Shown: piece by piece, positions 436-40,450 of the stretch
Position numbering within the stretch: the first letter of the stretch is position 1
Layout of the letters: each line of letters opens with the position of its first letter
NCBI GenBank assembly: GCA_029263315.1
Contig: JAJCXR010000048.1
Coordinates: 265,768-329,767 of the forward strand
Length of the DNA stretch: 64,000 bases
Direction: 5' to 3'
Source of the DNA: Acidobacteriota bacterium
GTDB taxonomy: Bacteria > Acidobacteriota > Thermoanaerobaculia > Multivoradales > J023
Translations under genes and position numbers: made by a program
Notes under the pieces: model-generated
Seen by the model: only the letters and a program-made list of their open reading frames with translations
What the model was told of the DNA's origin: nothing
Databases searched by the model: none

Positions 436-438
436 CAC

Positions 439-3909: not shown

Positions 3910-4060
3910 CCTCGGCGTAATCCGCCAGCAGGGTCAGCTGGGGAGCAGCATAGCTCTTGCGGGGAAGCGGTTGCACCAACTCGGAAACCATCGGCTCCAC
4001 GGACCGGCGGCGGGAGCGGTTCTCGGTCAGGATGGCGATCTCGTTCTGCGTCACGTTCAT
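3878..4060 (-). CDS. small ORF (60 aa), divergent from the halogenase-fusion gene; candidate small protein/peptide
   Basis: ATG at 4060 with gaggaa SD-like 7-8 nt upstream; no homology recognised. Confidence 0.2.
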   Translation of the reverse strand: MNVTQNEIAILTENRSRRRSVEPMVSELVQPLPRKSYAAPQLTLLADYAEGGPEPVCLRD

Positions 4061-4275
4061 TGGGATTCCTCGTGGCCCCTCAGGGCGATAGCTCAGGCCG
4101 GTTACACCGATATTGCTTTTGCAAGCAAGAAATCTGCCACTCGACGACCACGCACGGCGAGAACGATAAACGCTGAAAACATTAGAGTTAGCACAACCGT
4201 GACTGATAGATCGCTATCCAGCTTGACCGGACCGCAACTCGGGAGGGGGGAATCTTCCCTACCTCGACGGGAGAA

Positions 4276-14509: not shown

Positions 14510-14932
14510 CGATCCGGGGAATCCACCCGACCTTGGCGTCCCTCGGACGCAGCGCCATCCGGCGCCGTTCAGCCCGATCGGGCAGGCGAAATCCAGGCAA
14601 GAGCATCTGTCAGCTGGGGCAAGGCGCTGCAACGGGGGAGATTGCGATCTGGACCACAAGCGGTGGGACAAGAGGGGGTAGCTTCGGCGAGATGACGGTT
14701 TGGAATGGGGCCCTCTGACCTACCTCCGATGAAGCAGCCTACCCCACAGCCTTAAGACCCAAGAAATCTCCGAGCATTCTAGCGGATCCATTGCCAGATC
14801 CACAAGGAGCCTCGTGGTGCCAAAGACCGCCGATTCCGTATTATTTTGACACCTTCGCCTAGCTTTTGGCCCCGGAGGTGACCAGGCGCCAGCGGCGAAG
14901 TGGTCGAGGCGGCTCTAGAGCTGGCGACCCGC

Positions 14933-15724
14933 TCAACCCTTGGATTTTGGCCAGGGGAAGAAGGCGGGTGTCGTCTCGATGTACTCACGGTAGCCGGGAC
15001 GCCGCTCGGCGATATCTTTCTCCAGTAGGGTGACACCCGAGACCTTGAGCAGCAGAAAGCTCATCAGGGCGACGCTGGCCACCGTCCAGAGGCCACCAGG
15101 AACGGCCAAGGTGAAGGCAAAATAGCCCCACCACAGGGTGAAATCGCCGAAGTAATTGGGGTGTCTGGTGAGACTCCACAAACCCTTGTCCATCACCTTG
15201 CCCTGGTTGCTGGGATCGTCCTTGAAACGGCTCAGCTGCCAATCGCCGCCGGCCTCGAAGACAAAACCGAGGCACCACAGCGCCAGGGCCAAGCCATCCG
15301 TCCATTGCCAGGAGGCGCTTTGAGGCATCAATTGCACCCACACCAGCGGCTGGGCGATGATCAAAATAAGGGCCCCTTGCAGACAAAAGACGGTGAAGAA
15401 GCTCTTCCACCAAAATCCCTCCCCGGCCCGCTGGCGCATGTCCGCATAGCGCCGGTCTTCCCCCTCGCCCAGGCCACGCAGGAAAATATGTACCGCTAGG
15501 CGCACCCCCCAGAGGGTGACCAGGGCCAAGACCAACCCGCGCCGCGGCGTCACTTCGATGGTGGAGGCTTGAAAAGCGACGGTGCTGACAACGACAAAAC
15601 CGAGACCCCAGAAGATGTCGATCAAGCCGGTGTTACGACGCCAGACGCTGATCAGCCAAACGCCGAACATCATCAGCAAGACGGCGACGCCTGACCACAT
15701 GAGAACATCGAGGTAGTAATCCAT
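14933..15724 (-). CDS. DUF1295 / steroid-5-alpha-reductase-like membrane protein
   Basis: hallmark 'TRHPNYFGDFTLWWGYF'; multi-TM; ATG 15724 with aggaagg SD (track ORF extends to 15976). Confidence 0.75.
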   Translation of the reverse strand: MDYYLDVLMWSGVAVLLMMFGVWLISVWRRNTGLIDIFWGLGFVVVSTVAFQASTIEVTPRRGLVLALVTLWGVRLAVHIFLRGLGEGEDRRYADMRQRAGEGFWWKSFFTVFCLQGALILIIAQPLVWVQLMPQSASWQWTDGLALALWCLGFVFEAGGDWQLSRFKDDPSNQGKVMDKGLWSLTRHPNYFGDFTLWWGYFAFTLAVPGGLWTVASVALMSFLLLKVSGVTLLEKDIAERRPGYREYIETTPAFFPWPKSKG

Positions 15725-15987
15725 ATTCAATCGACCTTCCTGGAAAAAACGGTGGAGCCTTGGTGGCCGAGCGTAGGTGCGCACGGGGGACTCTTTGATC
15801 TTCGCCACCCCCCACCGGGTGGATTTGCTTTCCGCGCATTCTAGTGATAAAAGCCATAGACGCCGCCGCGCCCTCTCATCCCGTCCACGCGCATCCGCCC
15901 CCCTCGGGCACAGGACCCGGGCGCCCCGGCCCCACGCGCTTACCCACACCGCCAGCCAGTGCGGTCGGCAGAACACAGGAGAGCCTC

Positions 15988-17235
15988 ATGGATAGCCAGA
16001 AATTCGTCGAGCTCGAAGAGCGCTTTGGCGCCCACAATTACCACCCCCTCGATGTCATCATCGACCGCGGCGAAGGGGTGTGGGTTTGGGATGTCGAAGG
16101 CAAGAAGTACATGGACTGCCTGGCCGCCTACTCGGCCGTCAACCAAGGGCACTGCCATCCGCGCATTGTCGAGGCGCTGCTAGAGCAGGCACCGCGCCTC
16201 AGCTTGACCTCCCGCGCCTTCCGCAACAACCGCCTGGCGGGTTTCTACGAGAAGCTGGCCAAGCTCACCGGATTCGACAAGGTCTTGCCGATGAATACCG
16301 GCGCCGAAGCGGTGGAGACGGCGATCAAGGCGGCCCGCAAATGGGCCTACACCGTCAAGGGCACGGCGGAGGATCAAGCCGAGATCATCGTTTTCGACGG
16401 CAACTTCCACGGTCGTACCACCACCATCGTCAGCTTCTCCACCGAGGCCCAGAGCCGCAACGGCTTCGGGCCCTTCACGCCGGGTTTCAAGATCGTCCCC
16501 TACGGCGATTTCGACGCCATCAGCGAAGCCATGCACGGCGATGTGGCGGCCATTCTCATCGAGCCGATCCAGGGCGAGGGCGGCATCATCGTGCCTCCCC
16601 ATGGTTTCCTCAAGCATCTGCGCGACTTGGCCGACGAGCACAATTCGCTGCTCATGATGGACGAGATCCAGGCCGGTCTGGGACGCACCGGCAAGCTCTT
16701 CGCCTACCAGCACGAAGGCATTCGTCCCGACGTGGTGGTCATTGGCAAGGCCCTTTCCGGAGGCCTCTACCCGGTCTCCGCGATGCTCGCCGACGACGCG
16801 GTGATGAGCGTCTTTCACCCCGGTGACCACGGCTCCACCTACGGCGGCAATCCGGTGGCCGCCGCCGTCGCCATGGCCGCCCTGGACGTCCTGGTGGACG
16901 AGAAGCTGATCGAAAACTCCGCCAGCCTCGGTGCCTATGCCATCGAACGCCTCAAGAAACTCGAAGGCGATGCCCACGTCAAAGAAGTGCGCGGCAAGGG
17001 CCTATGGATCGGCATCGAGTTGCACGAGTCCTCCGGCGGTGCCCGGCGCTTCTGTGAGGTGATGCAACACCGTGGGGTGCTGTGCAAGGAGACCCACGTG
17101 CACGTCATCCGCCTGGCACCGCCGCTGATCGTCACCCGCGAGCAACTGGATTGGGCCCTCGACATCATCGAAACCACCCTGGCGGCGGATGATCCCAAGT
17201 CCCTGTTGCTGGAAGAGGCGGTGAGCGTCAGCTGA
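15988..17235 (+). CDS. rocD: ornithine aminotransferase (class-III PLP aminotransferase)
   Basis: class-III aminotransferase fold with PLP-Lys region 'VVVIGKALSGG', 'FHGRTTTIVSFS'; aggagag SD before ATG 15988. Confidence 0.75.
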   Translation: MDSQKFVELEERFGAHNYHPLDVIIDRGEGVWVWDVEGKKYMDCLAAYSAVNQGHCHPRIVEALLEQAPRLSLTSRAFRNNRLAGFYEKLAKLTGFDKVLPMNTGAEAVETAIKAARKWAYTVKGTAEDQAEIIVFDGNFHGRTTTIVSFSTEAQSRNGFGPFTPGFKIVPYGDFDAISEAMHGDVAAILIEPIQGEGGIIVPPHGFLKHLRDLADEHNSLLMMDEIQAGLGRTGKLFAYQHEGIRPDVVVIGKALSGGLYPVSAMLADDAVMSVFHPGDHGSTYGGNPVAAAVAMAALDVLVDEKLIENSASLGAYAIERLKKLEGDAHVKEVRGKGLWIGIELHESSGGARRFCEVMQHRGVLCKETHVHVIRLAPPLIVTREQLDWALDIIETTLAADDPKSLLLEEAVSVS

Positions 17236-18914: not shown

Positions 18915-19109
18915 CGTAGCGCACTCTGCGCCGCTATGCATCTTCCTCGATCACTCTCCTCGGCACCAACCCGGGGGCGTTCAGCGGTATGATCGCACCC
19001 CGCGACGGACGACTCCACCGGGTTCTTTCGGCAGGTCGTTGCAGCAGACCGTCGTCCATGCCGATATCGAGCTGGCGGGGCCCCGGTCCGCTTGCCAAGG
19101 AGGTCTCGA

Positions 19110-20762
19110 ATGTCCGTTGATAGCCCCCCACAAATGCCTTTGTACGAGCAGCTTCTCAGCTCTCTGGGGACACCCCCGGGACCGCCCAAGCTGAGGCCGT
19201 CGGCGGCTGTGGTGCCCTGGCGTCTGGATGACCACGGCGATGTCGAGGTCTATTGGGTGCGGCGCAATCCTGCGCTGCGTTTCATGGGGGGATGGCACGC
19301 CTTTCCCGGCGGCGGTCTGTCCCGACGCGACGCTGCCCTACCGCTCCGTGGTGCGCCCCGGGGGATGGCGCCGGAGGGTCGCTCCCCGGCCAGCGGATCG
19401 GCGGAGATCGACCAAACCTTGCCGCAAGATTTGATCGACGGCTTGCTCGCCTGCGCCCTGCGGGAACTGTTCGAAGAAACCGGCCTGCTGCTGCATTGCG
19501 GTGCCGCTACGGTAGATCCTGGGGCGCTGCTCGAAGGGCGCCAGAGCCTGCTGGCCAAGGAGGTCGACTTCGCCGCCTTGCTCGAACGCTGGCAGACCGA
19601 GCTCGACGCCGGCCCGCTGCACTATGCCGGGCGTTGGCTCACCCCACCGCTGGCCCCGATGGGCTTCGACAACCGCTTCTTCCTCCTCCACTGGCCGATG
19701 GATCGGGCCCTGCAACCGACGATCCTCGAAGGCGAGCTGGTGCACGGCGAGTGGATTCGTGCCGCCGACGGCGTCGCTTGCTGGCGCCGCAGCAAGGTGC
19801 TGATGGCACCGCCTATCCTCCACCTGCTCAGGGCCCTGGCCGAGGACGGACCCGAGACCGGGTTGCCTCGCCTACAACGACCGCAGGAGACCTTCTGGGG
19901 ACCGATGCGCCACATCGAGTTTCGTCCCGGTATCCATCTGCTGCCCGTGCGCACCCCCACCCTGCCACCGGCCACCCACACCAATGCGTTCCTGCTGGGA
20001 CATCGCGACATGGTGCTGGTGGACCCGGCCACCCCCTTCGAGGACGAGCAGGAGCGTCTCCTGGCAGCGCTACAGGCGGCTCAACAACAGGGCGCAAGAC
20101 TGCGGGCCATTTGGCTGACCCATCACCATGTCGATCACATCGGAGCCGTCGAGATGATGCGCCGCCGGCTCGATCTCCCCGTCTTCGCCCACGCCGCCAG
20201 CAAAGCGCCGTTGGCTCGCCTCGGCATCCACCTCGACGGCGAGCTGCGGCATGGCCAACGGGTGGTGCTGGACGGCGACCCGCCCTGTGTCATCGCCGTG
20301 CACCACACACCGGGCCATACCCGCGGCCATCTTTGCTTCTGGTTGGAAGAGCACGGTTCCTTGATCGCCGGCGATCTGATCTCCGCCCTCAGCACCATCG
20401 TCATCGATCCCCCGGAAGGGGATATGGGCGACTACCTGGCTTCCCTCGAGGCCATGATGAAATTACAACCGCGGCTACTGTTTCCCTCCCATGGCCCGGT
20501 GATCCTCGACGCCATGGGCAAGCTGGAGGAATTTCACAGCCATCGCCTGGAACGTGAGCGGCAGGTGTTGAGCCTATGGCGAGGGGGGGAACGGGATACC
20601 GCCGCCATGGTGCGGAGCATTTACCCCGATCTGCCGCCGATGGTTCACGGCATCGCGCAACGTCAAGTGCTGGCCCACCTGCAACATCTGGCGCAGCTCG
20701 AGGAGATCGAGGATTTCAAGCTGGAGGGGACTGAGCTCGACCCTAGAGCCGCCGACCGCTGA
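19110..20762 (+). CDS. fusion protein: N-terminal NUDIX hydrolase + C-terminal MBL-fold metallo-hydrolase
   Basis: Nudix box 'GGWHAFPGGG...ALRELFEETGL'; MBL motif 'HHHVDHIGA' (HxHxDH) plus downstream His/Asp; ggagg SD before ATG 19110. Confidence 0.75.
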   Translation: MSVDSPPQMPLYEQLLSSLGTPPGPPKLRPSAAVVPWRLDDHGDVEVYWVRRNPALRFMGGWHAFPGGGLSRRDAALPLRGAPRGMAPEGRSPASGSAEIDQTLPQDLIDGLLACALRELFEETGLLLHCGAATVDPGALLEGRQSLLAKEVDFAALLERWQTELDAGPLHYAGRWLTPPLAPMGFDNRFFLLHWPMDRALQPTILEGELVHGEWIRAADGVACWRRSKVLMAPPILHLLRALAEDGPETGLPRLQRPQETFWGPMRHIEFRPGIHLLPVRTPTLPPATHTNAFLLGHRDMVLVDPATPFEDEQERLLAALQAAQQQGARLRAIWLTHHHVDHIGAVEMMRRRLDLPVFAHAASKAPLARLGIHLDGELRHGQRVVLDGDPPCVIAVHHTPGHTRGHLCFWLEEHGSLIAGDLISALSTIVIDPPEGDMGDYLASLEAMMKLQPRLLFPSHGPVILDAMGKLEEFHSHRLERERQVLSLWRGGERDTAAMVRSIYPDLPPMVHGIAQRQVLAHLQHLAQLEEIEDFKLEGTELDPRAADR

Positions 20763-22008
20763 CGCCACCCCCGGTGACATCTTCCACGGTCACCGTCTCC
20801 AGACGACCGGTGAGATCGTCAGGCACTTGATCGGCGGCGGCCCTGACCCTGACGTAGTTGTCGGACAGGCCCGTCCACCAGCCACCACGGCGCTCTTCCC
20901 ACACCACGTCCAAGTCTTCGCCCACCTGCCGGCGATGAAAGGCCTCCTGGCTGGCATTGGCGACGGCCAGCATGCGGTGAACACGCTCCTTCTTGACCGT
21001 CGGCTCCACTTGCTGATCGTGGGTGGCGGCGTCGGTGCCTTGGCGTGGCGAATAAGTGAACACGTGGGGCCGGGCAAAGGCCATGGATTCGACAAAATCC
21101 AGGCTGGCCTGGAACTCGTCGTCACTCTCGCCGGGGAATCCGACGATGACATCGGTGGTCAGCGCCAGGCCAGGAATGGCCTGCCGCAGGGTCGACGCCA
21201 ACTCGCCATAGGCAGCGGCCGAGTAGGGGCGTCGCATGCGACGCAGGGTGGCGCTACAGCCACTTTGTAGCGACATGTGGATGTGGCGACACAGGCGCCG
21301 GTCCTGCCACAGGTCGAGCAGCCGGCGGTCGAGCTTCCAAGGCGCGATGGAGGTCAAGCGCAAGCGCCGCACGTCGGTATCGGCCAGCAGCGCCGACACC
21401 AAGTCGTAGAGACGCTGTCCGGCGTCGTCGTACTCTGAAATCTGCACCCCGGTGACCACCACCTCCGGGTAGCCTCCAGAAGCCAGACTCTGCACCTCAG
21501 CCACCACCTCGGCGATGGAACGACTGCGTTGACGACCCCTGGTGCTGGGGATAATGCAGAACGAGCAACGCATGTTGCAGCCGTCCTCCACCTTCACCAA
21601 GGCCCGCACATGGCCGTAGTCCAGCGGCACATAGGGGACCGGCACCGGCGAGGTCGACGGCTGGACCTCCGGGAAGAAGGCATGCACCTGCTCCAACAAT
21701 TGATGCTTCTGGGTGTTGTCCACCACCAAATCGACACCGGCCAAGGCCGCCGCCTCTTGTGGCGCATGGCTGGCATAACAACCGGTCAGCACGGTGCGCG
21801 GAGCATTGGGTAGCCGGGCCCCACGGCGGGCCGTCTTGCGTGAGTCACGGGCCGCCAAATGGGTGACGGTGCACGAGTTGATGACGTGCAGATCCGCCTC
21901 TTCTAGGCAAGGCGCCAACCGATGCCCCGCCGCCACAAAACGACGGGCCAGGTGGTCGACTTCCGCTTGGTTGAGCTTGCAGCCCAGGTTGGTGAAAAAG
22001 ACGCGCAT
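20743..22008 (-). CDS. mtaB: tRNA methylthiotransferase (MtaB-like radical SAM MTTase with TRAM domain)
   Basis: N-terminal 'FFTNLGCKLNQAEVD...HVINSCTVT' resembles B. subtilis MtaB; radical-SAM CNMRCSFC; gggag SD before ATG 22008. Confidence 0.8.
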   Translation of the reverse strand: MRVFFTNLGCKLNQAEVDHLARRFVAAGHRLAPCLEEADLHVINSCTVTHLAARDSRKTARRGARLPNAPRTVLTGCYASHAPQEAAALAGVDLVVDNTQKHQLLEQVHAFFPEVQPSTSPVPVPYVPLDYGHVRALVKVEDGCNMRCSFCIIPSTRGRQRSRSIAEVVAEVQSLASGGYPEVVVTGVQISEYDDAGQRLYDLVSALLADTDVRRLRLTSIAPWKLDRRLLDLWQDRRLCRHIHMSLQSGCSATLRRMRRPYSAAAYGELASTLRQAIPGLALTTDVIVGFPGESDDEFQASLDFVESMAFARPHVFTYSPRQGTDAATHDQQVEPTVKKERVHRMLAVANASQEAFHRRQVGEDLDVVWEERRGGWWTGLSDNYVRVRAAADQVPDDLTGRLETVTVEDVTGGGVSGRRL

Positions 22009-22149
22009 GGCAGAATCTGTCGACTCCCGAAGGTGGGTTGAAGGCGCCTCGGCAAGAGACCGCCGATGACGGCGCGATCTTACCAGCCCGGGGCGAGTCG
22101 AGAGCAATACTCCAGGCAAGACGAGAAAGACTCTCCTCCCTCCCCCAAC

Positions 22150-23577
22150 TCAACCCAACACGGCGGCGCTCTTTGGATACAGGGACTTCAACACCTCAGC
22201 CGACGCCCCGCGCAAGGTCGGGGCCAGGCGTTCGGCCAAGTCCTCGCGGCTGCCCCGCTGGGCTTCTTTCCATGCCCCTTGCAGGGTTTCATGATGTCGC
22301 GACAGCTGGCGTTCGACCGCCTCTCGCCATCGGCCATGGGCTTCTTCCCGCTGGAACTCGCCGCGACCACGACCGAAATGGGCCACCGCCAAGTAGCGTA
22401 GGAGCAACTGCTCGCTGAGCTCGTCGAGGAAGGCCGGGGACCACGCCACCGCCGGTGTCTTATCGCCGCTGAGCTCGCGGTAACCCTTGGCCAGACCAGC
22501 GCCGCCCAAGGCGCCGAGGATGGCGCCGGCCACCACCCCGCCGCCGAAGGTCAGGCCACCGGCCAGCAGGTCCGCCGCCAGACCACCGACGGCACCGCTG
22601 ACGACGCCCGCTAACAGGGCACTCTTCTCGGTCTCCAGCAACTCGCCGCGCACCAGGAAAGCCTCGAGGGCGGTTTCCAGAGCCTCACCCGCTTGCCCCT
22701 CCAGGCCGTGCAGGAGCAATAGATCGGCCATCAACTCTTCGGTCTGGTGCTGCAGCCGTCGCGCCAGGCTGGCCATGCCCTGCTGCCGATCTTGCTTGCG
22801 CAGGCCGGTGCTCAATCCACGACGCTGCGGCAGCGACTCGCGATCCGTCGCCGCTCGAGCCAAGTAGTCGGCCATGGCGGCGATGGCCTGGTCGAAGATA
22901 TCGAGGTTGCGCCGGTTCCAGGCCGCCACCAGCTCTTCCATCAAGGGGCGGGAGGTTTCCGGAAGATGGTGTTGCAGGGCCTCAAAGAGGCTGCCCTCCT
23001 GCACCCAACAACGGGAAAAGGCGTCCAGGGCCATGATCTCCACCACCCGCGGCCAACGCTGGCAATGGTGGCGCCACAGGGCCAGACGGGCCTCCATCTG
23101 ACGGGGGGTGTGCACCGCCTCACCACTTTGGTTGAGCAGCACGACGATGGGCCGCTCCATCCAGTCCAGCAGCTCCAGCTCCGGTTCCACATAACCCGCC
23201 GACGCCGGTTCCTCGCTGTCGTTGACCAGGTAAAGCACCACGTCCGCTTCCTGCCGCACATTGACCGCCGCCTGCTGGGCACACCACAGGGGACGATCGG
23301 TGAAGCGGTCCCACACCTGCGAGACAAACCAGCCGATGGGATTCTCCTGCTGCTGCAAGCGGCGCAACAACCGTACCGAATCGCCGAAACCCGGCGTGTC
23401 CCACAGGATGAGCTCGCCATGCTGGCTGGCGATCAGCGGATAGGCGGTGTTTTGATCGGTGACATGGGCTTGGTCCAAGACCTCGCCGACATCACGCCGC
23501 AGCAGGGTGCGGGCCAGGGTGGTCTTGCCGACATTGGTGTGGGAAACCAAGCTCAGGGTGATGCGTTGCTCCGTCAC
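22150..23577 (-). CDS. P-loop GTPase with C-terminal Gly-zipper membrane segment (DUF3482-like)
   Basis: G1 'SHTNVGKTT', G3 'DTPGFGD'; C-terminal 'GVVSGAVGGLAADLLAGGLTFGGGVVAGAILGALGGAGL'; GTG start preceded by ggagga and overlapping upstream stop (GTGA). Confidence 0.7.
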   Translation of the reverse strand: MTEQRITLSLVSHTNVGKTTLARTLLRRDVGEVLDQAHVTDQNTAYPLIASQHGELILWDTPGFGDSVRLLRRLQQQENPIGWFVSQVWDRFTDRPLWCAQQAAVNVRQEADVVLYLVNDSEEPASAGYVEPELELLDWMERPIVVLLNQSGEAVHTPRQMEARLALWRHHCQRWPRVVEIMALDAFSRCWVQEGSLFEALQHHLPETSRPLMEELVAAWNRRNLDIFDQAIAAMADYLARAATDRESLPQRRGLSTGLRKQDRQQGMASLARRLQHQTEELMADLLLLHGLEGQAGEALETALEAFLVRGELLETEKSALLAGVVSGAVGGLAADLLAGGLTFGGGVVAGAILGALGGAGLAKGYRELSGDKTPAVAWSPAFLDELSEQLLLRYLAVAHFGRGRGEFQREEAHGRWREAVERQLSRHHETLQGAWKEAQRGSREDLAERLAPTLRGASAEVLKSLYPKSAAVLG

Positions 23578-25099
23578 TTCTCCTCCAAGCTGCCGGGCGG
23601 CCAAGCCACGGTGGGAAATCGCAACAGGTCGGCGTCCTGGGGTGACTCCAAATCCAAGACCAAGGGCTTGATGGACAATGGATCGAGCAGCCGCCGCCAA
23701 GCGGCGCGCTTTTCGTCGAGCCGAGCGGCCACCACCTCGCCTTGCTGGCGACGCCGATACGGCCCGCTATCGACCCAAACCACCAACGACTGGCCGGGGG
23801 CGAGCACTTCCTGCAATTGTCGCAGCAGCTCGCCGTGCACCTCTTTCTCCGGCGTCTGGGCCAGGTTGAAGATGATCACCAAGCAACGGCCCCGAGGCGG
23901 CTCGGTGTCATCCAGCAGATCGCCGTAGGCCAAGGACGCCGCCAAGCGCACTTGGCAGCGCCGGCCGAAGACGTCCAACAGGAGCCGTTGCCCCTGTTCC
24001 GCCGCCTTGCTGGACGGCTGGTAGCTGTAGGGCCAGACATCCACTTGGTGGGCCACGGTTTGCCCCGCGGCCAGCAGACGGCGACGATAAACCTCCGGCA
24101 GTTGCACCGGCAAGCGCTTCTCGAGGCGACGCACCCGCCAGCTCTCCCAGAGCCACGCCAGGGCCCTCGGTAGGCCCACGAAGAGTAAGGCGGTGGCGGC
24201 CCACAGATGAATGAAGGGGGCGGCGTCGAAGGTCTCCGGCCACGGATAGAGAGCCACCGAAGGGATCTCCATCTGCAAGAGCTTGCTGGCCGGTGCCAAT
24301 ACCAGTCCGAGGATGGCGTCCACCTGCTCGCCGTCGAGGAAGGTGCTTTCCCACCCCACCCGGTACTCCCGCACCAGCCCCCTCACATACATGCCGGCCA
24401 CCGTACCGGCCACCAGGGCGCTGGAACCGACGTGCAGCAGGCGACGTAAACGAGCCGCCAGGAGCGGTGCCTGGGCGACGGACCAGAGGCTGAGGAAATG
24501 CAGCAGGCTGCGGGCCAGCAAGCCGTCTTCCCCTGCCACCGCGTCGTCGTCCCCTTGAGTCTTGGACGACCCCTTGGGCAGCTTGGACGACCCCTTGGGC
24601 AGCAACGACGGCAGCCGACGCATCGATCGTCCCTGCAACCAGGCGACCCAGCGGGCCACCGGCGCGGGTTTCGGCAGCCCAGAAGGCAACAGGCCGAGGA
24701 GGAAGGAGAGGGATAGGACGCCGACATTCCAAACCACCAGCACCATCAAGGGAACTGCTAGGACGCTGATCTGGCGAGCCGACCCCAAACCTTGGGACGC
24801 CAGGCCGAGGAGACCGGAGACCACCGCAACCGGCCACGTCCAACGACCGTCGAAACGACTCCAACGGCGGAGCTTGGGGAGCTCCGGAAAGCGCTGATCC
24901 AAGTCTTTCAGCAGGGCCTCAGCACGCCCCGCCAAGGCGTCCGCCTCGCGCCCCTTGGAAGCGCCGACGCCAGACGCCAGGTGGGCCTCGGTCGCCAGCC
25001 GACGGGCACCATGGCTGAGCAAAACCCCGCCCCGGTCCGTTTCCTCGATGGCCTGCACGAGGAGCACCGCCTGGGCAGGCTCCTCGGCCAATCGAAGCA
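23574..25099 (-). CDS. hypothetical polytopic membrane protein (DUF2868-like) translationally coupled to downstream GTPase
   Basis: several TM helices, repeat 'PKGSSKLPKGSSK'; start must lie after KAS stop (~25110) - GTG ~25099 proposed (track ORF extends to 25256). Confidence 0.5.
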
Positions 25100-25110
25100 C
25101 CGACCGCGTG

Positions 25111-26709
25111 CTAATCGTCGCTCTCCTCGCCCATCTTTGGCAGCGGTCGCGAGACCACCGCCGCGTTGATGCCACCGACCCCCATGGACATCTTGCCCAC
25201 CGCGCCGTCCGGGGCGGCACAGGAAGAATCAAAGACAAACTTGTCGTGCACGGCACCGATCTCCCGGTTGAGCTCCCCCTGCGACAGGGCGGTCGGATAG
25301 AGGGCGCCCCGCTGGTAGCCCAGGTACTGCGCCGTCAGCTCCCAACCACCACCGGCCGACATGCCGTGACCGAAGGTACCCTTGCGGGCCGTCACTAGCA
25401 CCTCTTCCGACATCATCTTGCGAACCATCTCGACTTCGTTGAAATCACCCGGCGTAGCGGTGGCGTGCAGATCCCAGGACACGACGTCACCGCCCCTGGT
25501 GGAGGCTGCGTCGAGGGCCATCCGCATGGCCGTGGTGGGGCCTTCTTGGGACGGCGTGATGATGTGATCGGCGTCCGACGTGACGCCCACCGAAACCGGC
25601 TCCAAACCGAGGGGACGCAACCCCAGGCCAGTCATGTGCTCCATGTCACCGAGGATCCACACCACCGAGCCACCGGCGATATGCGTCCCCCGCAGCTCGG
25701 TGAGGGGTTTCGACACCTGGGCGTCGGCGGAGATGACTCGGGCGCTGTAGAAGGCGCCGACGCTCAACGGGCTGGGGGGCGGATCGGTGGCACCGATGAC
25801 CACCGCCTTGGCTTCACCGCGACGGATGGCGTCCAAGGCCAGCTTGAGGGTGACGCCAAACGTCGAGCAAGCGGCACCCACCGCCAAGGACATGCCGGTG
25901 ATCTGGCCGAGCATGGTGATTTGCGCCGCCGCGATGTTGTCGATATTCCAAATGATGTTCGACGACACCGCCTGCCACGGCGGCAAGGGGGCTTGCCACT
26001 TCTCCTGCAGGCGGCGCAGGCGGCGTCCCTTCTCCTTCATCAGGGCCAGCTTGCCGCTCTCGACGCTGCCCTGCACCGCCAGGCCTTCGATCTCCCGTTG
26101 CTCATCGAGGTACTGGCGCAGCTCCGGGGACAGGGCGGTCCAGAAGCCCCACCAGGTATCTTCCACCGCATCCCGGTGGTCGAGGTCGGTGGCCGAATCC
26201 GGCTCCGCCGGCAGCTCGACATCGGCCAGCTCGGCAACCGTCTCACCGGCCTCGAAGCGACGCCGCAGGCTGTTGTTGTCCGGTCGCGACCAAAATCGGT
26301 TCCAATGGCGCTGCGCCCTGTAGAGGGATAAGGACTCCTCGTATTGGGTGAAGAGGTCACCCAACCCGGTTCCGACGTAGACATGGGTCTCGGTTCCCAA
26401 GCGCTTGAGCTCTTCCTCCAAACCCGGGTTCTGTCCCAGTGCCTGGATGAAGGCGCCGATGGCGTACTGCACCGGCAGCCCCATCTTGTTCTCCAGTTGC
26501 CCAAAACGATTGGGCTTGAAGCGCTCGTCGACCCACCGGCGATAGACGGAAAAATCGAACTGTGGATAACCGACCAAGAAGTTGTCCGGGCCGAAACCGT
26601 TGAACGGCTCCAGCCAGCTCTCTGAGCTGTCGAGGTTGTTGGCGAAGGTCTCGATATCAGGTGAGCGAGGGGCGACGACGCCCCAGCCGAAAATACCAAC
26701 TCTGCGCAC
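25111..26709 (-). CDS. beta-ketoacyl-ACP synthase (KAS I/II-like) with ~130 aa insertion before active-site Cys
   Basis: Cys-His-His triad motifs 'GAACSTFG', 'HATATPGD', 'GHGMSAGG'; N-terminus 'RVGIFGWGVVAPRS' KAS-like; extra segment between residues ~125-255; GTG start. Confidence 0.75.
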   Translation of the reverse strand: MRRVGIFGWGVVAPRSPDIETFANNLDSSESWLEPFNGFGPDNFLVGYPQFDFSVYRRWVDERFKPNRFGQLENKMGLPVQYAIGAFIQALGQNPGLEEELKRLGTETHVYVGTGLGDLFTQYEESLSLYRAQRHWNRFWSRPDNNSLRRRFEAGETVAELADVELPAEPDSATDLDHRDAVEDTWWGFWTALSPELRQYLDEQREIEGLAVQGSVESGKLALMKEKGRRLRRLQEKWQAPLPPWQAVSSNIIWNIDNIAAAQITMLGQITGMSLAVGAACSTFGVTLKLALDAIRRGEAKAVVIGATDPPPSPLSVGAFYSARVISADAQVSKPLTELRGTHIAGGSVVWILGDMEHMTGLGLRPLGLEPVSVGVTSDADHIITPSQEGPTTAMRMALDAASTRGGDVVSWDLHATATPGDFNEVEMVRKMMSEEVLVTARKGTFGHGMSAGGGWELTAQYLGYQRGALYPTALSQGELNREIGAVHDKFVFDSSCAAPDGAVGKMSMGVGGINAAVVSRPLPKMGEESDD

Positions 26710-26829
26710 GATGTTCCCCTATGTGGCGTCTTGCCTTGATGGCGACGAGGATGGTCGGCCCGACGCGCTGACGCGGAACCGTTGGCAGCGGATTATGCCA
26801 CGGTGCGGCACGGCGACGGGCGGGAAGTG

Positions 26830-28638
26830 TCAGGAGTTTATCAAGCCCGGCGCGGCGGCGTGCGGCGGTAACATCCGGTGCTGGTAGAGGGCCCCGTCGA
26901 CAAAGCCGAGCCCCCGGTAGTAGTCGCGGGTGCCGATGGAAGAAATCACCGCCAGATCGTCGAAACCCGCCGCCACCGCCAGCTCGGCGGCGCGCTCGAC
27001 GAGCCGCCGTCCCAGCCCCAAGTGCTGCCCCTTGCCGGGACGCTGCTCGCCGATCGCCACGACCACACCGTAGACGTGCACTTCGCGGATCATGGCGCTG
27101 TCGGCGATCTCGTCGATGAACACCGCCCGGTCGGGCAAGGAAAGCCGACAGAAACCGACGATGTGGTCGTTGTCGGTGACAAATTGCAGGAAGACCTCCC
27201 GGCCGACGGCGGTGGCGTACTCGATCTCTTGCAGGCGCAACGCCGAGGCGTCGACCTTGCGACCGCGGATCTCCCGGGCCCGGATGTCGCGGCTGCGCTC
27301 GCCCCGCTCCGCCAGGCGCTGCTCCACGACTTCGCGGAAATTGGTGATCTTGTTGCCCACCAAGATATCGTCGCCTGGGATATCGCGGATCACCCGCGTC
27401 ACCCGGCAATAGGCCGGCACTTGCAACATGCAGGCGGTGAGAACCTCGAGCAGCTCGTCCTCCTCGTAGGGACGCCAGTCGCCGCGCTCGTAGACCTGCA
27501 TCAGCTCGGCGCTCTCGATGAGCGAGCAGGGGTAGATCTTGAGCTCGTCGGGCCTGAAATCAGGGTCGCTGAACAGCTTTCCAAAGTCGACGATATCGCT
27601 CTGCGGATCGGAGCCGTGCAAGTTGGGCATCCAATGGGCGTGCAGCTTGAAACCCCCTTGCCGCAGCAGGGCAACGGCGCGGCGGGTGGCGGCGACGTCG
27701 TGGCCCCGTCGATTGACCTCCAGCACGTGGTCCGACAGGCTTTGGAAGCCGATCTGCACTTTGGTGCAACCCAGGCGACGGATGCGCACCACTTCGTCCT
27801 TCGTCAGGTGATCCGGCCGCGTCTCCACCACCAAACCGACGCAACGGGCGACGGTGCTCTCGTTGGCCAGCTGCACCGCTTCGAGCTCCTCCCAAGTGGC
27901 GGATTCGGTGTCGTCCAACAGGGCACCGTCCAGTTGCTGACGCAAGTAGTCGCTGACCACCTGGTTGTAGGTGCGATCGAAGTCGCTGCCGTCCACCTCT
28001 TCGTCCAGGGTCTCGAAGCTCACCTTGCCCTTGGGCAACATGCCCTCTTCCAGATTGGCGAGGTCCGCCACCTTGACAAAATCGTTCATGGCATCGAAGC
28101 AACGCTTGATGAACCAAATCTGGTAGGTCTCCGGATAGAACGACCAGGTGCCACCGAGCACGATGAGCTCCACCTTGTCGACCCGGTGGCCGGTGTGATG
28201 GAAGGCGACAAGCCGCCCCAGGGTCTGAGCGTAGGGGTCAAAATCGTGCTGCGCCGCCCGTTGCGCCCCCGGCTCCCGCGACAGGTAGCTCTTCGGCATG
28301 CGCACGTCGTTGGGGCAGAAGATGCACTTACCGGGGCAAGGATAGGGCTTGGTCAACACCGTCACCGGTGCCACACCGCTGGCCGTACGGATGGGTTTCA
28401 TGCGCAGGCGCTCGACAAAAGCGCGGTCGTCCGGCCAGCCGTACTGCTCGGCGAAGTAGCGGAACCCGCGGATCACCTCGCTCTTGGAAAAAGCCCCTTT
28501 GCCCTCCTTGGGGAATTGTCGCACCAGGAGATTCCAGCTCGCGGCATCCACCCCGTCCGCCGCCTGGATGGCGCGGATGATGGGGATCAATTGCTCCTCG
28601 TGGGCACGGGGATCGAAGTGATAGCGTGGCATGGTCAT
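26830..28638 (-). CDS. Elp3-like radical SAM + GNAT acetyltransferase fusion
   Basis: 'CPGKCIFCPND' cluster motif and 'HDFDPY' resemble Elp3; C-terminal GNAT motif A 'QHLGLGRRLVERA'; start ambiguous (28638/28632). Confidence 0.75.
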   Translation of the reverse strand: MTMPRYHFDPRAHEEQLIPIIRAIQAADGVDAASWNLLVRQFPKEGKGAFSKSEVIRGFRYFAEQYGWPDDRAFVERLRMKPIRTASGVAPVTVLTKPYPCPGKCIFCPNDVRMPKSYLSREPGAQRAAQHDFDPYAQTLGRLVAFHHTGHRVDKVELIVLGGTWSFYPETYQIWFIKRCFDAMNDFVKVADLANLEEGMLPKGKVSFETLDEEVDGSDFDRTYNQVVSDYLRQQLDGALLDDTESATWEELEAVQLANESTVARCVGLVVETRPDHLTKDEVVRIRRLGCTKVQIGFQSLSDHVLEVNRRGHDVAATRRAVALLRQGGFKLHAHWMPNLHGSDPQSDIVDFGKLFSDPDFRPDELKIYPCSLIESAELMQVYERGDWRPYEEDELLEVLTACMLQVPAYCRVTRVIRDIPGDDILVGNKITNFREVVEQRLAERGERSRDIRAREIRGRKVDASALRLQEIEYATAVGREVFLQFVTDNDHIVGFCRLSLPDRAVFIDEIADSAMIREVHVYGVVVAIGEQRPGKGQHLGLGRRLVERAAELAVAAGFDDLAVISSIGTRDYYRGLGFVDGALYQHRMLPPHAAAPGLINS

Positions 28639-28696
28639 GGCCGTGTCTGATGGGATGAGCCCGCAGGGCGGGCCGTTGGCGACGCAGCGTATCACG

Positions 28697-29479
28697 ATGA
28701 AAGCCGAAACCCGACGCCACCTAGTGGCCCTCAACCGGCGCTTCTACCAGCGCCATAGTCAAGCCTTCGACGGCAGCCGGCAGCGGCCGTGGCGCGGTTG
28801 GCAACGCCTGGTGGAGTTACTGGAAGCCCCGTCGACAAGATCGGCGGACGGCGAGCCCCTGCGGGTGCTCGACGCCGGCTGCGGCAACGGTCGCTTGGCC
28901 TCCTTTCTACGGGATGCCTTGCCACGTCCCCTACACTATGTCGGCGTCGACTCCAGCCCGGAGCTGCTCGCCCAGGCGGCACAACGGCCGGCGGCTCAGA
29001 CCCTCGTCGAGGCCGATCTGCTGTCCGATGAGCTGGAGCAGAAGGTCGGTGAGCGGCGCTTTGATCTGGTGACCAGCTTCGGAGTCTTGCATCATGTGCC
29101 CGGTTTGGCGACGCGCCTCGAGCTGTTGCAAACCCTGGCGGGATTCTGCCGTCCAGGAGGACTCCTGGTGGTCTCGGTGTGGCGCTTGGATCGGCAACCC
29201 CGCTTCGCCGACAAGGTCATCCCATGGACTGAGTACCTGGGTGCCGAAGAGACGGCTGGCCCACCCCTCGACCTGAACGATCTAGAGCCGGGGGATGTCT
29301 TGCTCGGCTGGTCCGGCGATCGCAGCCACCCGCGCTACTGCCACTTCCCCGACGACGCCGAGTTGGTGGTTTGGCAGCAGCATTTCGATCGGCAGCACCT
29401 CGATCGTCCAACGGTGCATCGGTGGCCCGCCGATGGCGCCGACGGTGCCACCAATCTCTACCTGGCCTGGCCTTGCTGA
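28697..29479 (+). CDS. class-I SAM-dependent methyltransferase
   Basis: motif I 'VLDAGCGNGRLA'; ~260 aa from MKAETRRH (track ORF starts 28631 but would overlap the divergent Elp3 start). Confidence 0.7.
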   Translation: MKAETRRHLVALNRRFYQRHSQAFDGSRQRPWRGWQRLVELLEAPSTRSADGEPLRVLDAGCGNGRLASFLRDALPRPLHYVGVDSSPELLAQAAQRPAAQTLVEADLLSDELEQKVGERRFDLVTSFGVLHHVPGLATRLELLQTLAGFCRPGGLLVVSVWRLDRQPRFADKVIPWTEYLGAEETAGPPLDLNDLEPGDVLLGWSGDRSHPRYCHFPDDAELVVWQQHFDRQHLDRPTVHRWPADGADGATNLYLAWPC

Positions 29480-29617
29480 CACTGGCTGTCAGGGCACCGT
29501 GTTAGGATAGCGAAAATGCCGCAGCACGGCATTCGCGCCGCACGGCGGCACACAACCATTGCATCTACGGGTCGGGCTCGACGCCCCACCTTCGCCACAC
29601 TTCGGAAGTCCCGCCCC

Positions 29618-30373
29618 ATGCTGAGAACCTACATCCGCTTTCCACTGCTGATCTTGGTCACCTTGATGGCCTATGCCATCAATCTGGCGTCCCACTGGTT
29701 CCTTCGCCCCTTTTCACAGCGTCTCTATGTACGCGGCCGAGGCGTCGCCTTCCGCTTCTGGTGCCGTAGCTTCGCCCTCCTTTGCGGTATGCGGGTCAAG
29801 CTGGTCGGCACCCCTCCCCGGGGACGTTTTTTCCTGGTATCGAACCACGTGAGCTACGTCGACATCATCCTCTTGGGCCACTTCATCGACGCCGCCTTCA
29901 TCGCCAAATCAGAGCTTCGGCAGTGGCCGGTCCTCGGCCGGGTCTTCGCTACCGCCGACACCATTTTCATCGATCGCAGCCGCAAGAAGGACATCCTGCG
30001 GGTGATGGAAGATGTGGACACACGCCTCGACATGGGGCTCGGCATCCTGCTCTTCCCCGAGGGCACCAGCGGCAAGGGCGACCAATTGCTGCGCTTCAAG
30101 CCTTCGGTGTTGCAAGTCCCCGCCGAGAGTCGCGACCCGGTGTATTGCGCCACCCTCCACTACCAAACCCCGGAGGGCTGCCTGAAGGCGTCGGAAGCGG
30201 TCTGCTGGTGGGGCGATGAAGACTTCCTACCCCATGCCAAGCGCCTGACCCGGCTCCCCCATTTCGAGGCCACCGTCCATTTCAGCGAAGAGCCCTTCGT
30301 GGCCGACGATCGTAAGGTGCTGGCGGACCGATTGCGGGTTGCCATGGAAGAGCAGTTCGTTCCCATGGAGTGA
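29618..30373 (+). CDS. lysophospholipid (1-acyl-sn-glycerol-3-phosphate) acyltransferase family protein
   Basis: 'NHVSYVDI' (HX4D) and 'FPEGTSG' motifs; N-terminal TM; start at MLRTYIRF (track 29516). Confidence 0.75.
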   Translation: MLRTYIRFPLLILVTLMAYAINLASHWFLRPFSQRLYVRGRGVAFRFWCRSFALLCGMRVKLVGTPPRGRFFLVSNHVSYVDIILLGHFIDAAFIAKSELRQWPVLGRVFATADTIFIDRSRKKDILRVMEDVDTRLDMGLGILLFPEGTSGKGDQLLRFKPSVLQVPAESRDPVYCATLHYQTPEGCLKASEAVCWWGDEDFLPHAKRLTRLPHFEATVHFSEEPFVADDRKVLADRLRVAMEEQFVPME

Positions 30374-30394: not shown

Positions 30395-32620
30395 CTACAT
30401 CCCTTCCCCGCCACCGGCCTCACCTTCGTCCACGGCAATGCCGTAGACGTGCTCGATACCCCGCAGAATCAGCAGACCTTCGGAGATCGCCGGGGTGGTC
30501 ATCACCACTTCACCGAGCTCGTTACGTCCTAGCTCTTCGTAGGTCTTACCGGCCCGCACGACATAGGTAATTCCCTCCTCGGAGGTGATTAAGAGGCGTC
30601 CATCGGCGGCCACCGGCGAGGCGCTGAAACTGGTGCCGGAATCCACCCGTTGCCGGTACAACCGTTCGCCGGTGGTGGCGTCATAGGCGGCGAGCCGTCC
30701 TCCGTTGTTGAGCATGTAGAGGATGCCGCGGTAGTAGATGGGCGTCGGGATATAGGTGCCACCGGGATTGACCGACCAGGCGATGTGGTCATTGGAAGTG
30801 GCGTCGTCAGTCAACGACAGGTCGCCACGGCCGCCGGGTTTTATGGCATAAATGGGGCGAGCAGGTGGATAGCCCCCGGTGACAAACGCCATGCCCTCGC
30901 CGATGACCGGCGTGCCGACGGTGACCTCCGAGTTGGGCGACAAGGTCCACAGCTCCTCGCCGGTGGCGGCGTTGTAACCGCGCACCGTCGTACCGTTGGT
31001 AACGATCTCGTCGACCCCATCCGGGTCGGTGGCAGGCAATACCGTCGGCGTCCCCCAAGTAGGAATCTCATCCCGCTCGGTACGCCACAATTGCTCGCCC
31101 GTCTCGAGGTCCAGGGCGGCGATGAAGGAGCCCTGGTGGATGTCGGTCTGCAAGATGATGCGACCGTCGTGGAGAATCGGTGAGCTGGCGAACCCCCACT
31201 CGTAGGACGCATCGTAGAACCAGCCACTATTGAGCGTGCCGAGATCCTTCTTCCACTTCAGATTGCCATCCATGTCGTAACAGAAGATGCCCTCGGAGGC
31301 GAAATGGGCCACGACAAACCGTCCATCGGTCACCGCCGTTGGGTTCGCATGGCTCGACTTGAGATGCCGCTTGACCTGGGGCGATCGACGGCTGGCCTCC
31401 CGCTGCCAAAGGATCTCACCGCTGAGCCGGTCGAGGGCATAGACCTTCCAAACGTGCTCCGACACATCATCGACGGAATCCACGTCGCCGTAAAGACCGG
31501 TGCGGAAGGTGTCGTCCGCCGCCCCCGAAATAGCCGTGGTGATGAAGACACGGTCGCCCCACACCACCGGGCTGGAAAGGCCGATTCCCGGAATCTTCGT
31601 CCGCCATCGGATGTGCTCGCCGCTCTCCCCCTGCCAGGTGAAGGGGATACCCTGGCCGTCCCCGTCGCCCGACGCGTTGGCCCCCCGGAAAGCGGGCCAA
31701 GGTCTAGCAGCTTGGCGCTGCGCCGGTGGCAGTGCCACCGAAGCCGTCACAGGAGCGGTCTCGGACTGAGCGTCCGGCGCATGACGGGCAAACGTCAGCT
31801 CGAAGTCGCCCCGCCGCAAGACAAAACCTTCGACGAGCCCACCTCGGCCCCTGAAGGTGATTTCGATGCCCGGCTCCTGACGTACCAAGAAAGAATCCTC
31901 GCCGACACCATCCAACGTCCAGACAGGGGGATCGCCGACCTGGGCTTTGAGCTCTTCCCCTTCGACGAACAATCTGGCCATCAACTCCCGTTCTTCGTTC
32001 CGAAACTGGCCCACATAGCTTTGCCGCTGAGCGTCGTTCAGGGTGCGAACCTGCTGCGCCACCACCGCCGTCTCCGGCAAGGCCGACGCCAACAACGCCG
32101 CCACCTCCGGCTGCGCATCCGCCGCCTGCCGCTGAGCTGCTTGGATGTCCGCCGGCTCGATCTTCTGCGTCTTCAAAGCCGCCTTGGCCAGCTCGACATC
32201 CCCCTGACGCACCGCCATCGAAAGCGCCTCCTTGGCGTCCGCCGGGCCTTCCTCCAGCAACCGCAGCACGATCTGACGATGCACCGCCGAGTCTTCCATC
32301 TTCGAAAGCCCCCATCCAAGGGGCGTCGCTTCGTAAAACGTGTCGGTAACGTCGACGCTAGCGCCCTTGGCCAGCAGCACCTCCACCATCTCCCGGTGCC
32401 CCTTGTCGACGGCAAAGAACAATGCCGTGGCCCCGTAGCGGGACTTGCTGTCAACGTCCACGCCAGCCGTCAAGAGACGCTTCACCGTCGGCAAGTCTTG
32501 GCGTTGGGATGCGGCGATCAACTCACGGCCGGAGTCCTCGTCCGCCGACGCCGTCACGCCGGCCCCAAGGCACCAAGCCAGCAGGAATACCAAGGTCAAT
32601 GCTCTTCGACGATCGCTCAT
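30395..32620 (-). CDS. secreted protein with ankyrin repeats and PQQ/BamB-like beta-propeller
   Basis: signal peptide MSDRRRALTLVFLLAWCLGAGVTASA; ankyrin 'GATALFFAVDKGHREMVEVLLAKGASVDV'; repeated W/G propeller blades; aggag SD before ATG 32620 (track ORF extends to 33013). Confidence 0.7.
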   Translation of the reverse strand: MSDRRRALTLVFLLAWCLGAGVTASADEDSGRELIAASQRQDLPTVKRLLTAGVDVDSKSRYGATALFFAVDKGHREMVEVLLAKGASVDVTDTFYEATPLGWGLSKMEDSAVHRQIVLRLLEEGPADAKEALSMAVRQGDVELAKAALKTQKIEPADIQAAQRQAADAQPEVAALLASALPETAVVAQQVRTLNDAQRQSYVGQFRNEERELMARLFVEGEELKAQVGDPPVWTLDGVGEDSFLVRQEPGIEITFRGRGGLVEGFVLRRGDFELTFARHAPDAQSETAPVTASVALPPAQRQAARPWPAFRGANASGDGDGQGIPFTWQGESGEHIRWRTKIPGIGLSSPVVWGDRVFITTAISGAADDTFRTGLYGDVDSVDDVSEHVWKVYALDRLSGEILWQREASRRSPQVKRHLKSSHANPTAVTDGRFVVAHFASEGIFCYDMDGNLKWKKDLGTLNSGWFYDASYEWGFASSPILHDGRIILQTDIHQGSFIAALDLETGEQLWRTERDEIPTWGTPTVLPATDPDGVDEIVTNGTTVRGYNAATGEELWTLSPNSEVTVGTPVIGEGMAFVTGGYPPARPIYAIKPGGRGDLSLTDDATSNDHIAWSVNPGGTYIPTPIYYRGILYMLNNGGRLAAYDATTGERLYRQRVDSGTSFSASPVAADGRLLITSEEGITYVVRAGKTYEELGRNELGEVVMTTPAISEGLLILRGIEHVYGIAVDEGEAGGGEGM

Positions 32621-32879
32621 AATGCGTCTCCTAGTGGATAGAGCCTCGACTCTACCGGAAATAGGTGCCATGCACCTTGTTGGAATGTGCGTGGCACTTG
32701 GTTGGAAGTGGTTGAAAGTGGCCCCGCAGAAGGTGCCTGCCCAGCTCACCCTCCACCTATGCTCCACCCAAAGACGCACCCCCTCCAACTCGAGCCACCA
32801 GCTCGACGGATTCCCGGAAGTCAAAGGTTCTCGGGACCTCATCGGCCAGCTTCTCCGGCAAAGCCGACCGACAGCGGCC

Positions 32880-33845: not shown

Positions 33846-33920
33846 GGCGGGTCCTCCTGGGCCCAAGGGAGCTCGCGACATTGCGAGGCCCAACCTGGGC
33901 TTCTAGGAGGACATGACGTA

Positions 33921-40363: not shown

Positions 40364-40450
40364 ATCGCCAAGCCTGTTACTTTGGATGCCTTGAGCATCC
40401 TGTTATTCAGTGTTGTCTACCGGCTCCGCTTCGGCTCCCAGGCCAGCGCA

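Follow-up and report, generated by a model that had tools for sequence, protein, structure and literature searches.

We analysed a 64,000-nucleotide stretch of DNA from an Acidobacteriota bacterium (assembly GCA_029263315.1, contig JAJCXR010000048.1, positions 265,768 to 329,767; the whole stretch is called the window below), in which genes for two families of transfer RNA (tRNA) modification enzymes, Elp3 and MtaB, flank those for a ketosynthase, a membrane protein and a GTPase. Five open reading frames, all on the minus strand, occupy 20743-28734, and the refined genes span 20743-28632. This confirms the same-strand run reported in a preliminary description of this DNA, whose five family assignments, including an insertion in the ketosynthase, were also borne out. 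In the direction of reading, the run consists of Elp3 (600 amino acids; 26830-28632), a 120-bp gap (26710-26829), a divergent FabF-fold ketosynthase (532 amino acids; 25111-26709), a DUF2868-like membrane protein (508 amino acids; 23574-25100), a DUF3482 GTPase (475 amino acids; 22150-23577), a 141-bp gap (22009-22149) and MtaB (421 amino acids; 20743-22008). On the plus strand, beyond a 64-bp divergent intergenic region (28633-28696), lie a Trm9-like class I S-adenosylmethionine (SAM) methyltransferase of 260 amino acids (28697-29479) and a PlsC/OlsA-like acyltransferase of 285 amino acids (29516-30373). The Elp3, ketosynthase and GTPase products are identical, residue for residue, to proteins called on an NCBI contig (the exact Elp3 product is P0121); the end of the run in the preliminary description, 28638, corresponds to an ATG that precedes the called Elp3 start by two codons.

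Tight coupling is limited to the middle three genes. The ketosynthase stop lies 10 nt from the GTG start of the membrane-protein gene (25100), and the latter overlaps the GTPase gene by 4 nt (GTGA), the GTG start of the GTPase being preceded by a GGAGGAG Shine-Dalgarno sequence. The gap between Elp3 and the ketosynthase differs in size among relatives, from an overlap up to 1.8-4 kb, and in the window it carries an extended -10-like element, TGGCATAAT, at 26792-26800, a possible internal promoter. A scan of 20400-29600, which includes the Elp3-ketosynthase and GTPase-MtaB gaps, found no sigma-70 consensus sites; terminator-like sites in the same interval were fewer than in shuffled sequences, and none fell in either gap. 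Scans of the window for tRNA genes and Rfam families gave no match. The window is high-GC (60-67%) and, by its best matches, comes from a Thermoanaerobaculia-like acidobacterium; same-strand runs occur elsewhere in it (for example, 53727-63639). The five-gene run is, thus, unremarkable alone, and its significance must come from conservation.

Elp3 and its conserved methyltransferase partner

Elp3 passes the curated TIGR01211 model (473.8 bits against a cutoff of 350, model positions 50-517 of 522) and also matches Radical_SAM and Radical_SAM_C, while its match to the Pfam GNAT model is just under the cutoff (20.0 against 20.7). Its best PDB matches by phmmer are archaeal MinElp3 (6iaz, 3e-99) and Dehalococcoides mccartyi Elp3 (DmcElp3; 5l7j, 8e-98), followed by eukaryotic Elp3 at about 1e-82; identity to MinElp3 is 41.6% across 450 aligned positions. 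The protein shares with MinElp3 and DmcElp3 the same architecture of radical-SAM and lysine acetyltransferase domains, and the motifs are kept. The iron-sulfur triad C99-x3-C103-x2-C106 (CPGKCIFCP) aligns with the triad of MinElp3, which per the alignment has one extra residue in its spacing, and is invariant in a 15-sequence alignment. Also invariant in these 15 sequences are E270 (of ETRPD), K365 and Y367 (of KIYP), the acetyl-coenzyme A (acetyl-CoA) motif Q536-H-x-G-L-G541 (QHLGLG) and Y571-Y572 (of YYR). The first three residues correspond to MinElp3 E207, K302 and Y304, with the chain offset deduced from the PDB alignment (E of IETRPD, K and Y of KIYP). In MinElp3 these three residues are essential for acetate-dependent tRNA modification; Elp3 hydrolyses acetyl-CoA, the free acetate then tunnelling to the radical-SAM site (PMC13315578; 2026).

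The residues tested for acetyl-CoA, acetate and SAM are thus all kept, which speaks against an idea raised in the preliminary description, namely a second radical-SAM/GNAT function with an acyl donor other than acetyl-CoA. Nor does the protein stand apart from bona fide tRNA Elp3: it passes the curated model, and its closest solved relatives are bona fide Elp3s. Elp3 homologues had also been described as rare in bacteria, which fails for this lineage, since our search returned at least 8,000 matches, the top 120 of them at 61-100% identity. In the literature, DmcElp3 was called 'a rare example' in a 2019 paper, and a 2026 paper speaks of 'numerous bacteria'. Judged by these matches and residues, Elp3 of the window is canonical and belongs to a large clade of bacterial Elp3 proteins. 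In the literature searched (here and below, one library), we found nothing functional on Elp3 in Acidobacteria or Thermoanaerobaculia.

Two features distinguish this clade from the solved enzymes. In the HMMER comparison with 6iaz, residues 219-282 (open-reading-frame numbering; 27889-28080) fall between two aligned domains and form an acidic insertion of about 65 amino acids in the radical-SAM domain, which is absent from archaeal, Dehalococcoides and eukaryotic Elp3. The protein also has its own N-terminal extension of about 70 amino acids, whereas DmcElp3 has none and MinElp3 has a basic one (PMC6367351). All 15 aligned members of the bacterial clade have the insertion, including P0236, P0192 and P0239, which lack a ketosynthase neighbour, and the extension is likewise found in members without this neighbour. 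Neither feature, therefore, marks a ketosynthase-linked subtype.

We surveyed the neighbours of Elp3 in a metagenome scan that used as its query an alignment whose first sequence was a distant Elp3, and that gave 80 loci (L089-L168) with Elp3 proteins 49-66% identical to that of the window; these loci were then searched by tblastn. Loci were taken as informative for the methyltransferase if they held at least 800 bp upstream of Elp3 (n=68), and for the ketosynthase if they held at least 1.5 kb downstream (n=55). Of the 68 loci, 49 had the methyltransferase next to Elp3 and divergent from it, at a median distance between match ends of 57 bp; it lay elsewhere in the locus in 5 and was not found in 14. 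The ketosynthase was adjacent to Elp3 in just 2 of 55. The same picture is seen in three further loci with Elp3 61-65% identical to that of the window (L081, L083 and L085), where the methyltransferase is immediately upstream and divergent, the ketosynthase is absent and no other neighbour is held in common; locus L088, discussed below, also has the methyltransferase adjacent and divergent to Elp3. The widely conserved neighbour of Elp3 is, thus, the Trm9-like methyltransferase and not the ketosynthase.

The start of the methyltransferase, the ATG at 28697, was set by the N-termini of its homologues; a 260-amino-acid product with this start was absent from the protein collection searched. Pfam and NCBIfam return only generic methyltransferase models for it. 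A profile built from 8 sequences found Trm9 (5cm2_Z) as its top PDB match (E=5.7e-14), and matched as well the tRNA uridine-5-oxyacetate methyl-esterase CmoM. The top match of a 43-sequence profile was again 5cm2_Z (E=1.8e-12), in an alignment that covers profile positions 26-232 of 250, extends from TRxxPW to RY[C/Y]H and reaches past the generic Rossmann core. Yeast Trm9 needs R29, D72, H115, H116, W145, W168 and R241, and Y243 and N271 are further catalytic or substrate residues (PMC4678810). In the window family the equivalents of R29, D72, H115, H116 and R241 (R28, D59, H132, H133 and R213) are invariant, and those of W145 and W168 (W162 and W205) are nearly so. N253 is nearly invariant as well; its equivalence to N271 is only suggested, the position being beyond the HMMER alignment. 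Overall, the TRxxPW, D-x-GCGNG, HH, beta-4 Trp and RY-x-H motifs align with those of Trm9, an enzyme that works with Trm112 and is known from eukaryotes and Haloferax, whereas the window enzyme is bacterial. The C-terminal 98 amino acids searched alone against the PDB gave chance matches only, and a single-sequence AlphaFold model of the methyltransferase was unusable (predicted local distance difference test, pLDDT, 36).

From its signature residues and its pairing with Elp3, the methyltransferase most likely methyl-esterifies 5-carboxymethyluridine at position 34 (cm5U34) to 5-methoxycarbonylmethyluridine (mcm5U34). Clustering of Elp3 and Trm9 genes has been reported in Sulfolobus (PMC6144793), and the textbook wobble modification of bacteria is 5-(carboxy)methylaminomethyluridine, (c)mnm5U, made by MnmE/MnmG (PMC5400242). 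We found no description of a bacterial Elp3/Trm9-like pair, which, from the library searched, is no proof of novelty.

The ketosynthase, the membrane-protein/GTPase pair and MtaB

The ketosynthase passes PF00109 and PF02801 (69.4 and 40.6 bits against a cutoff of 20.8) and scores only 118.7 against the 493.75 of the housekeeping fabF model TIGR03150. All 17 beta-ketoacyl-acyl carrier protein synthase models that it matched fell far below cutoff. A Foldseek search with its AlphaFold2 model (pLDDT 87.3, predicted template-modelling score 0.87) placed FabF on top, with a target-normalised template-modelling score of about 0.8 and an identity of 17-21%. The view of the preliminary description that this is no housekeeping FabF therefore stands, on both the bit score and the identity in structural alignments. 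What it has in common with FabF and FabB is the thiolase fold, the Cys-His-His triad and the catalytic Lys: C281, H415, H448 and K443 align with the FabF residues and are invariant in 43 sequences. The gate Phe of FabF, by contrast, is Val in the window protein and Val or Ile in its family.

A further difference is size. FabF has about 410 residues against 532 here, and the solved relatives lack the extra segment. Residues 120-254 (25948-26352) stand in for about 25 FabF residues, HMMER alignment against 4qav breaking at 119/255, for a net gain of about 110 amino acids. The insertion is modelled as five helices (119-141, 147-153, 176-192, 195-208 and 216-238; pLDDT mostly 85-97), and W136, W140, W187, W190, P243-P244-W245 and W254 within it are invariant among the 43 sequences.

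Relatives of the ketosynthase occur at at least 566 genomic loci, and proteins 62-73% identical to that of the window are found in Thermoanaerobaculia and in Myxococcaceae (Myxococcus, Corallococcus, Archangium and Hyalangium). We counted neighbours in the 80 best species-representative loci. In 62 of them the gene is solitary, that is, the other four genes of the run are not within 10 kb, a setting in which it again differs from FabF and FabB. The genes next to the solitary ketosynthase vary from clade to clade. Myxococcaceae have LamG-like proteins, a sigma factor and a DEAD-box helicase there; in other clades the neighbours are a histidine kinase and response regulator, SPFH proteins, a SurA-like protein, or an aminotransferase and nitrilase. 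The conserved neighbouring families that we examined included no recognisable fab or acpP gene, and the neighbouring genes scanned no recognisable gene for an acyl carrier protein or CoA ligase. By its sequence features, this is an uncharacterised, highly conserved family with an intact catalytic triad. No description of it was found in the literature searched, nor any functional report on a Myxococcus ketosynthase with the insertion. Two further ideas, a FabY-like initiating ketosynthase and a role in iso-diabolic-acid or ether-lipid synthesis, were dropped, as no analysis result backed them.

The membrane protein has no family at standard thresholds. Its match to DUF2868 (PF11067) is weak (E=0.073; 13 bits against 26.8) and full-length (profile positions 13-313 of 315), and its orthologues in loci L086 and L088 likewise give weak or faint DUF2868 matches. 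Residues 105-140 form a hydrophobic stretch. The GTPase passes both PF01926 (MMR_HSR1; 39.8 against 21.9) and PF11981 (DUF3482; 56.6 against 29.2), and has a Gly-rich hydrophobic segment at residues 320-362, a predicted membrane hairpin. It shows a weak similarity to dynamin-like LeoA (2.1e-7, 28 bits; LeoA/LeoBC in PADLOC). With no other PADLOC match, we did not assign it to a defence system. Gene pairs of DUF2868 and DUF3482 are known from Proteobacteria, and the window pair resembles them in the GTPase passing both its models, in the membrane partner, in translational coupling and in the existence of a fused form, but differs in that its membrane partner stays under the DUF2868 threshold. 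The fused form, P0321, is a single product of 810 amino acids with DUF2868, GTPase and DUF3482 domains, and supports a physical association of the proteins encoded at 22150-25100. Pairs 51-52% identical to that of the window stand without ketosynthase, Elp3 and MtaB in L086 and L087. For DUF2868 and DUF3482, no function was found in the literature searched.

MtaB passes the equivalog model TIGR01579 by a margin of only 10 bits (367.4 against 357.05), and the subfamily model TIGR00089 clearly (330.3 against 251). With its UPF0004 and Radical_SAM matches, its N-terminal Cys triad (LGC, NSC, TGC) and the second triad in CNMRCSFC, it corresponds to MtaB (YqeV), the methylthiotransferase that makes 2-methylthio-N6-threonylcarbamoyladenosine at position 37 (ms2t6A37), except that a Pfam search at E<=0.01 found no TRAM domain in it. 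Of the informative linked loci, about 7 of 10 have MtaB after the GTPase. In other organisms, tRNA-Lys(UUU) carries both a U34-type and an A37-type modification. Elp3 (U34) and MtaB (A37) are both predicted anticodon-loop modifiers, which by analogy offers a soft rationale for their proximity. Convergent with MtaB, its end overlapping by 20 nt, is a plus-strand open reading frame (19092-20762) for a fusion of NUDIX, metallo-beta-lactamase-fold and winged-helix domains, which is syntenic in L001 and L016.

The PlsC-like acyltransferase matches PF01553 (68.3 bits), and its best NCBIfam match, the lyso-ornithine-lipid O-acyltransferase, scores 117.6 against a cutoff of 300, so that it is no equivalog of that enzyme. 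Its gene is co-directional with that of the methyltransferase, an adjacency kept only inside the linked clade described below: it is seen in L003, L005, L009, L010, L019, L022, L088, L100 and L128, while in L007 some 2.8 kb of the locus separate the gene from the methyltransferase. It is not beside the methyltransferase in L081, L083 and L085. An OlsB/OlsA-type ornithine-lipid pathway, also considered, was dropped for lack of any analysis result backing it.

Origin and meaning of the gene order

The gene order is found in 18 of the 80 species-representative ketosynthase loci, and also in L082, L088, L100 and L128. In a neighbour-joining tree of the 80 ketosynthase sequences and that of the window, every ketosynthase linked to Elp3 or to the GTPase falls in one clade (18 loci and the window), so that the linkage, as read from this tree, arose once. 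The synteny is, thus, real in these relatives but is confined to one monophyletic ketosynthase clade. Part of the conservation is, moreover, plain shared ancestry, since synteny in the close relatives L001 and L016 extends even to unrelated genes on the opposite strand beyond MtaB. Neither independent recurrence nor obligate co-occurrence of the genes was found: the linkage has a single origin, and the modules are each found alone.

Within the clade the run is variable. L088 is deeply diverged (ketosynthase 63% and GTPase 51% identical). Its PlsC-like and methyltransferase genes diverge from Elp3, which is followed after a 35-bp gap by the ketosynthase and, with overlaps at both junctions, by the membrane protein and the GTPase; MtaB is missing. 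L100 and L128 hold the same block from the PlsC-like gene to the GTPase. In L088 an OLD-family nuclease/ABC ATPase gene (14591-16393) occupies the position of MtaB after the GTPase, and a Cas3 gene is nearby (21339-21593). The ketosynthase, membrane-protein and GTPase genes are contiguous in L082, and insertions of 1.8-4 kb occur in L012 and L082. L010 and L019 have kept Elp3 and the ketosynthase and lost the membrane protein, the GTPase and MtaB. L006, conversely, has kept the ketosynthase, membrane protein, GTPase and MtaB, with YbeY-CorC-Era instead of Elp3 upstream of the ketosynthase. In that locus (1-5638) the block from the ketosynthase to MtaB follows immediately on a run of ribosome-maturation genes, 7TM-HD, YbeY, CorC and Era.

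We consider it probable that the run is a composite of independently distributed modules, possibly co-transcribed, which do not share a biochemical pathway. The modules would have come together a single time, in an ancestor common to one deep clade of Thermoanaerobaculia-like Acidobacteriota. Their activities, like the transcript structure, are predictions. In the first module, Elp3 would bind tRNA and hydrolyse acetyl-CoA in its GNAT domain; the acetate would pass to the radical-SAM site and be added at C5 of the wobble uridine U34 to give cm5U, as its conserved residues and the published mechanism suggest, and the methyltransferase would then convert cm5U to mcm5U. Elp3 would take no acyl donor derived from the ketosynthase. 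The second module, the stand-alone ketosynthase, presumably catalyses the decarboxylative Claisen condensation of an acyl substrate. The third would be a membrane-associated pair of the DUF2868-like protein and its translationally coupled dynamin/LeoA-like DUF3482 GTPase, and in the fourth MtaB would make ms2t6A37. Each component adds a new member to a known family, and the arrangement is lineage-specific.

Several points weigh against this reading. The absence of a shared pathway is an argument from gene distribution and not from biochemistry. Two lipid-type genes, for the PlsC-like protein and the ketosynthase, bracket the tRNA-modification pair. The six-gene block persists, tightly spaced, in the deeply diverged L088, where it has outlasted its outer flanks, and selection for its co-expression may be the reason. 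As for the methyltransferase, the position of yeast Trm9 Y243 is Cys in the window (C215) and Cys or Leu in its family, and Trm9 leads generic methyltransferases by just 2-4 orders of magnitude in E-value.

The best of the alternatives, which we nevertheless regard as unlikely, is that the ketosynthase, the DUF2868-like protein and the GTPase, perhaps with the PlsC-like protein, form a module for synthesis or remodelling of membrane lipids, on which the tRNA-modification genes hitchhike or with which they are co-regulated. Translation and lipid genes are coupled in rpmF-plsX-fab operons, a case for comparison. The 10-nt spacing and GTGA overlap in the window, the overlapping junctions of L088, the contiguity of the three genes in L082, the membrane hairpin and weak LeoA similarity of the GTPase and the nearby PlsC-like gene all fit such a module. 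The association arose only once, however, and its parts come apart: the ketosynthase is solitary in most genomes, membrane-protein/GTPase pairs occur without it, and L010 and L019 retain Elp3 and the ketosynthase without the pair.

A stronger version, in which the six genes are a selected operon of one deep acidobacterial clade that couples acetyl-CoA-dependent wobble-uridine modification, by physical contact or through regulation, to a membrane-lipid process, seems to us improbable. If true, a new ketosynthase subfamily and a dynamin-like GTPase would together carry out the membrane-lipid process so coupled.

That Elp3 and the ketosynthase share one pathway, the latter making or loading an unusual acyl donor for the radical-SAM/GNAT enzyme to transfer to tRNA or lipid, is very improbable. 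It is true that about 15 species-representative loci, and likewise L088, L100 and L128, have the two genes side by side, their spacing ranging from an overlap to some 400 bp, that the ketosynthase is no housekeeping FabF and that the Elp3 clade carries its own insertion and N-terminal extension. But these two features are common to Elp3s without a ketosynthase neighbour, the acetate-positioning residues and acetyl-CoA motif of Elp3 are invariant, the linkage has a single origin, and no gene for an acyl carrier protein or CoA ligase was recognised among the neighbouring genes scanned. The joint pathway surmised in the preliminary description is also countered by the counts, with the ketosynthase next to Elp3 at 2 of 55 loci and solitary at 62 of 80, and L006 has the remaining four genes of the run without Elp3.

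There is equally little in favour of an Elp3/methyltransferase pair acting in this lineage on a lipid head group, protein or small molecule rather than tRNA: lipid-type genes bracket the pair in the linked clade, the methyltransferase matches generic models only and the window has no tRNA gene, yet Elp3 passes a curated tRNA-Elp3 model and the Dehalococcoides enzyme is tRNA-dependent (PMC6367351), the best solved relative of the methyltransferase is the tRNA cm5U methyltransferase Trm9, most of whose catalytic residues are conserved, and the pair recurs without lipid genes.

Elsewhere in the window, the minus-strand gene at 496-1515 encodes a protein of 339 amino acids with only the class I Glu/Gln-tRNA-synthetase catalytic domain (PF00749), which from its size and architecture may be the tRNA-modification enzyme GluQ-RS. 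A minus-strand stretch at 38778-45818 holds an extracytoplasmic function (ECF) sigma factor (39683-40363) with an adjacent protein lacking a Pfam match, two CMAS-family lipid methyltransferases (40451-41779 and 42356-43936) and a flavin adenine dinucleotide-dependent amine-oxidase-like protein (44577-45818); it resembles the sigmaE/ChrR-linked clusters for cyclopropane or furan fatty acids. At 30395-33013 an 872-amino-acid protein with ankyrin repeats and a PQQ/BamB beta-propeller is encoded, adjoining a minus-strand gene (32880-33893) for a protein of 337 amino acids that has an IS200-like Y1 transposase domain and may be a tyrosine transposase associated with repetitive extragenic palindromes. 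Plus-strand genes encode a 915-amino-acid tryptophan-halogenase-like protein (4276-7023) and a fungalysin (M36) metallopeptidase (49038-51194).

The outcome is largely deflationary, in that new radical-SAM/GNAT chemistry or a pathway joining Elp3 to the ketosynthase is without support. Two of the components reach beyond this locus and may merit the attention of specialists. The ketosynthase family has a genetically tractable host in Myxococcus xanthus, whose orthologue is 64-65% identical. The bacterial pair of an archaeal/eukaryotic-type Elp3 and a Trm9-like methyltransferase, in turn, predicts an mcm5U-type wobble modification in many bacteria, and the chances seem to us evenly balanced that many of those with the pair make mcm5U34 and not (c)mnm5U34.

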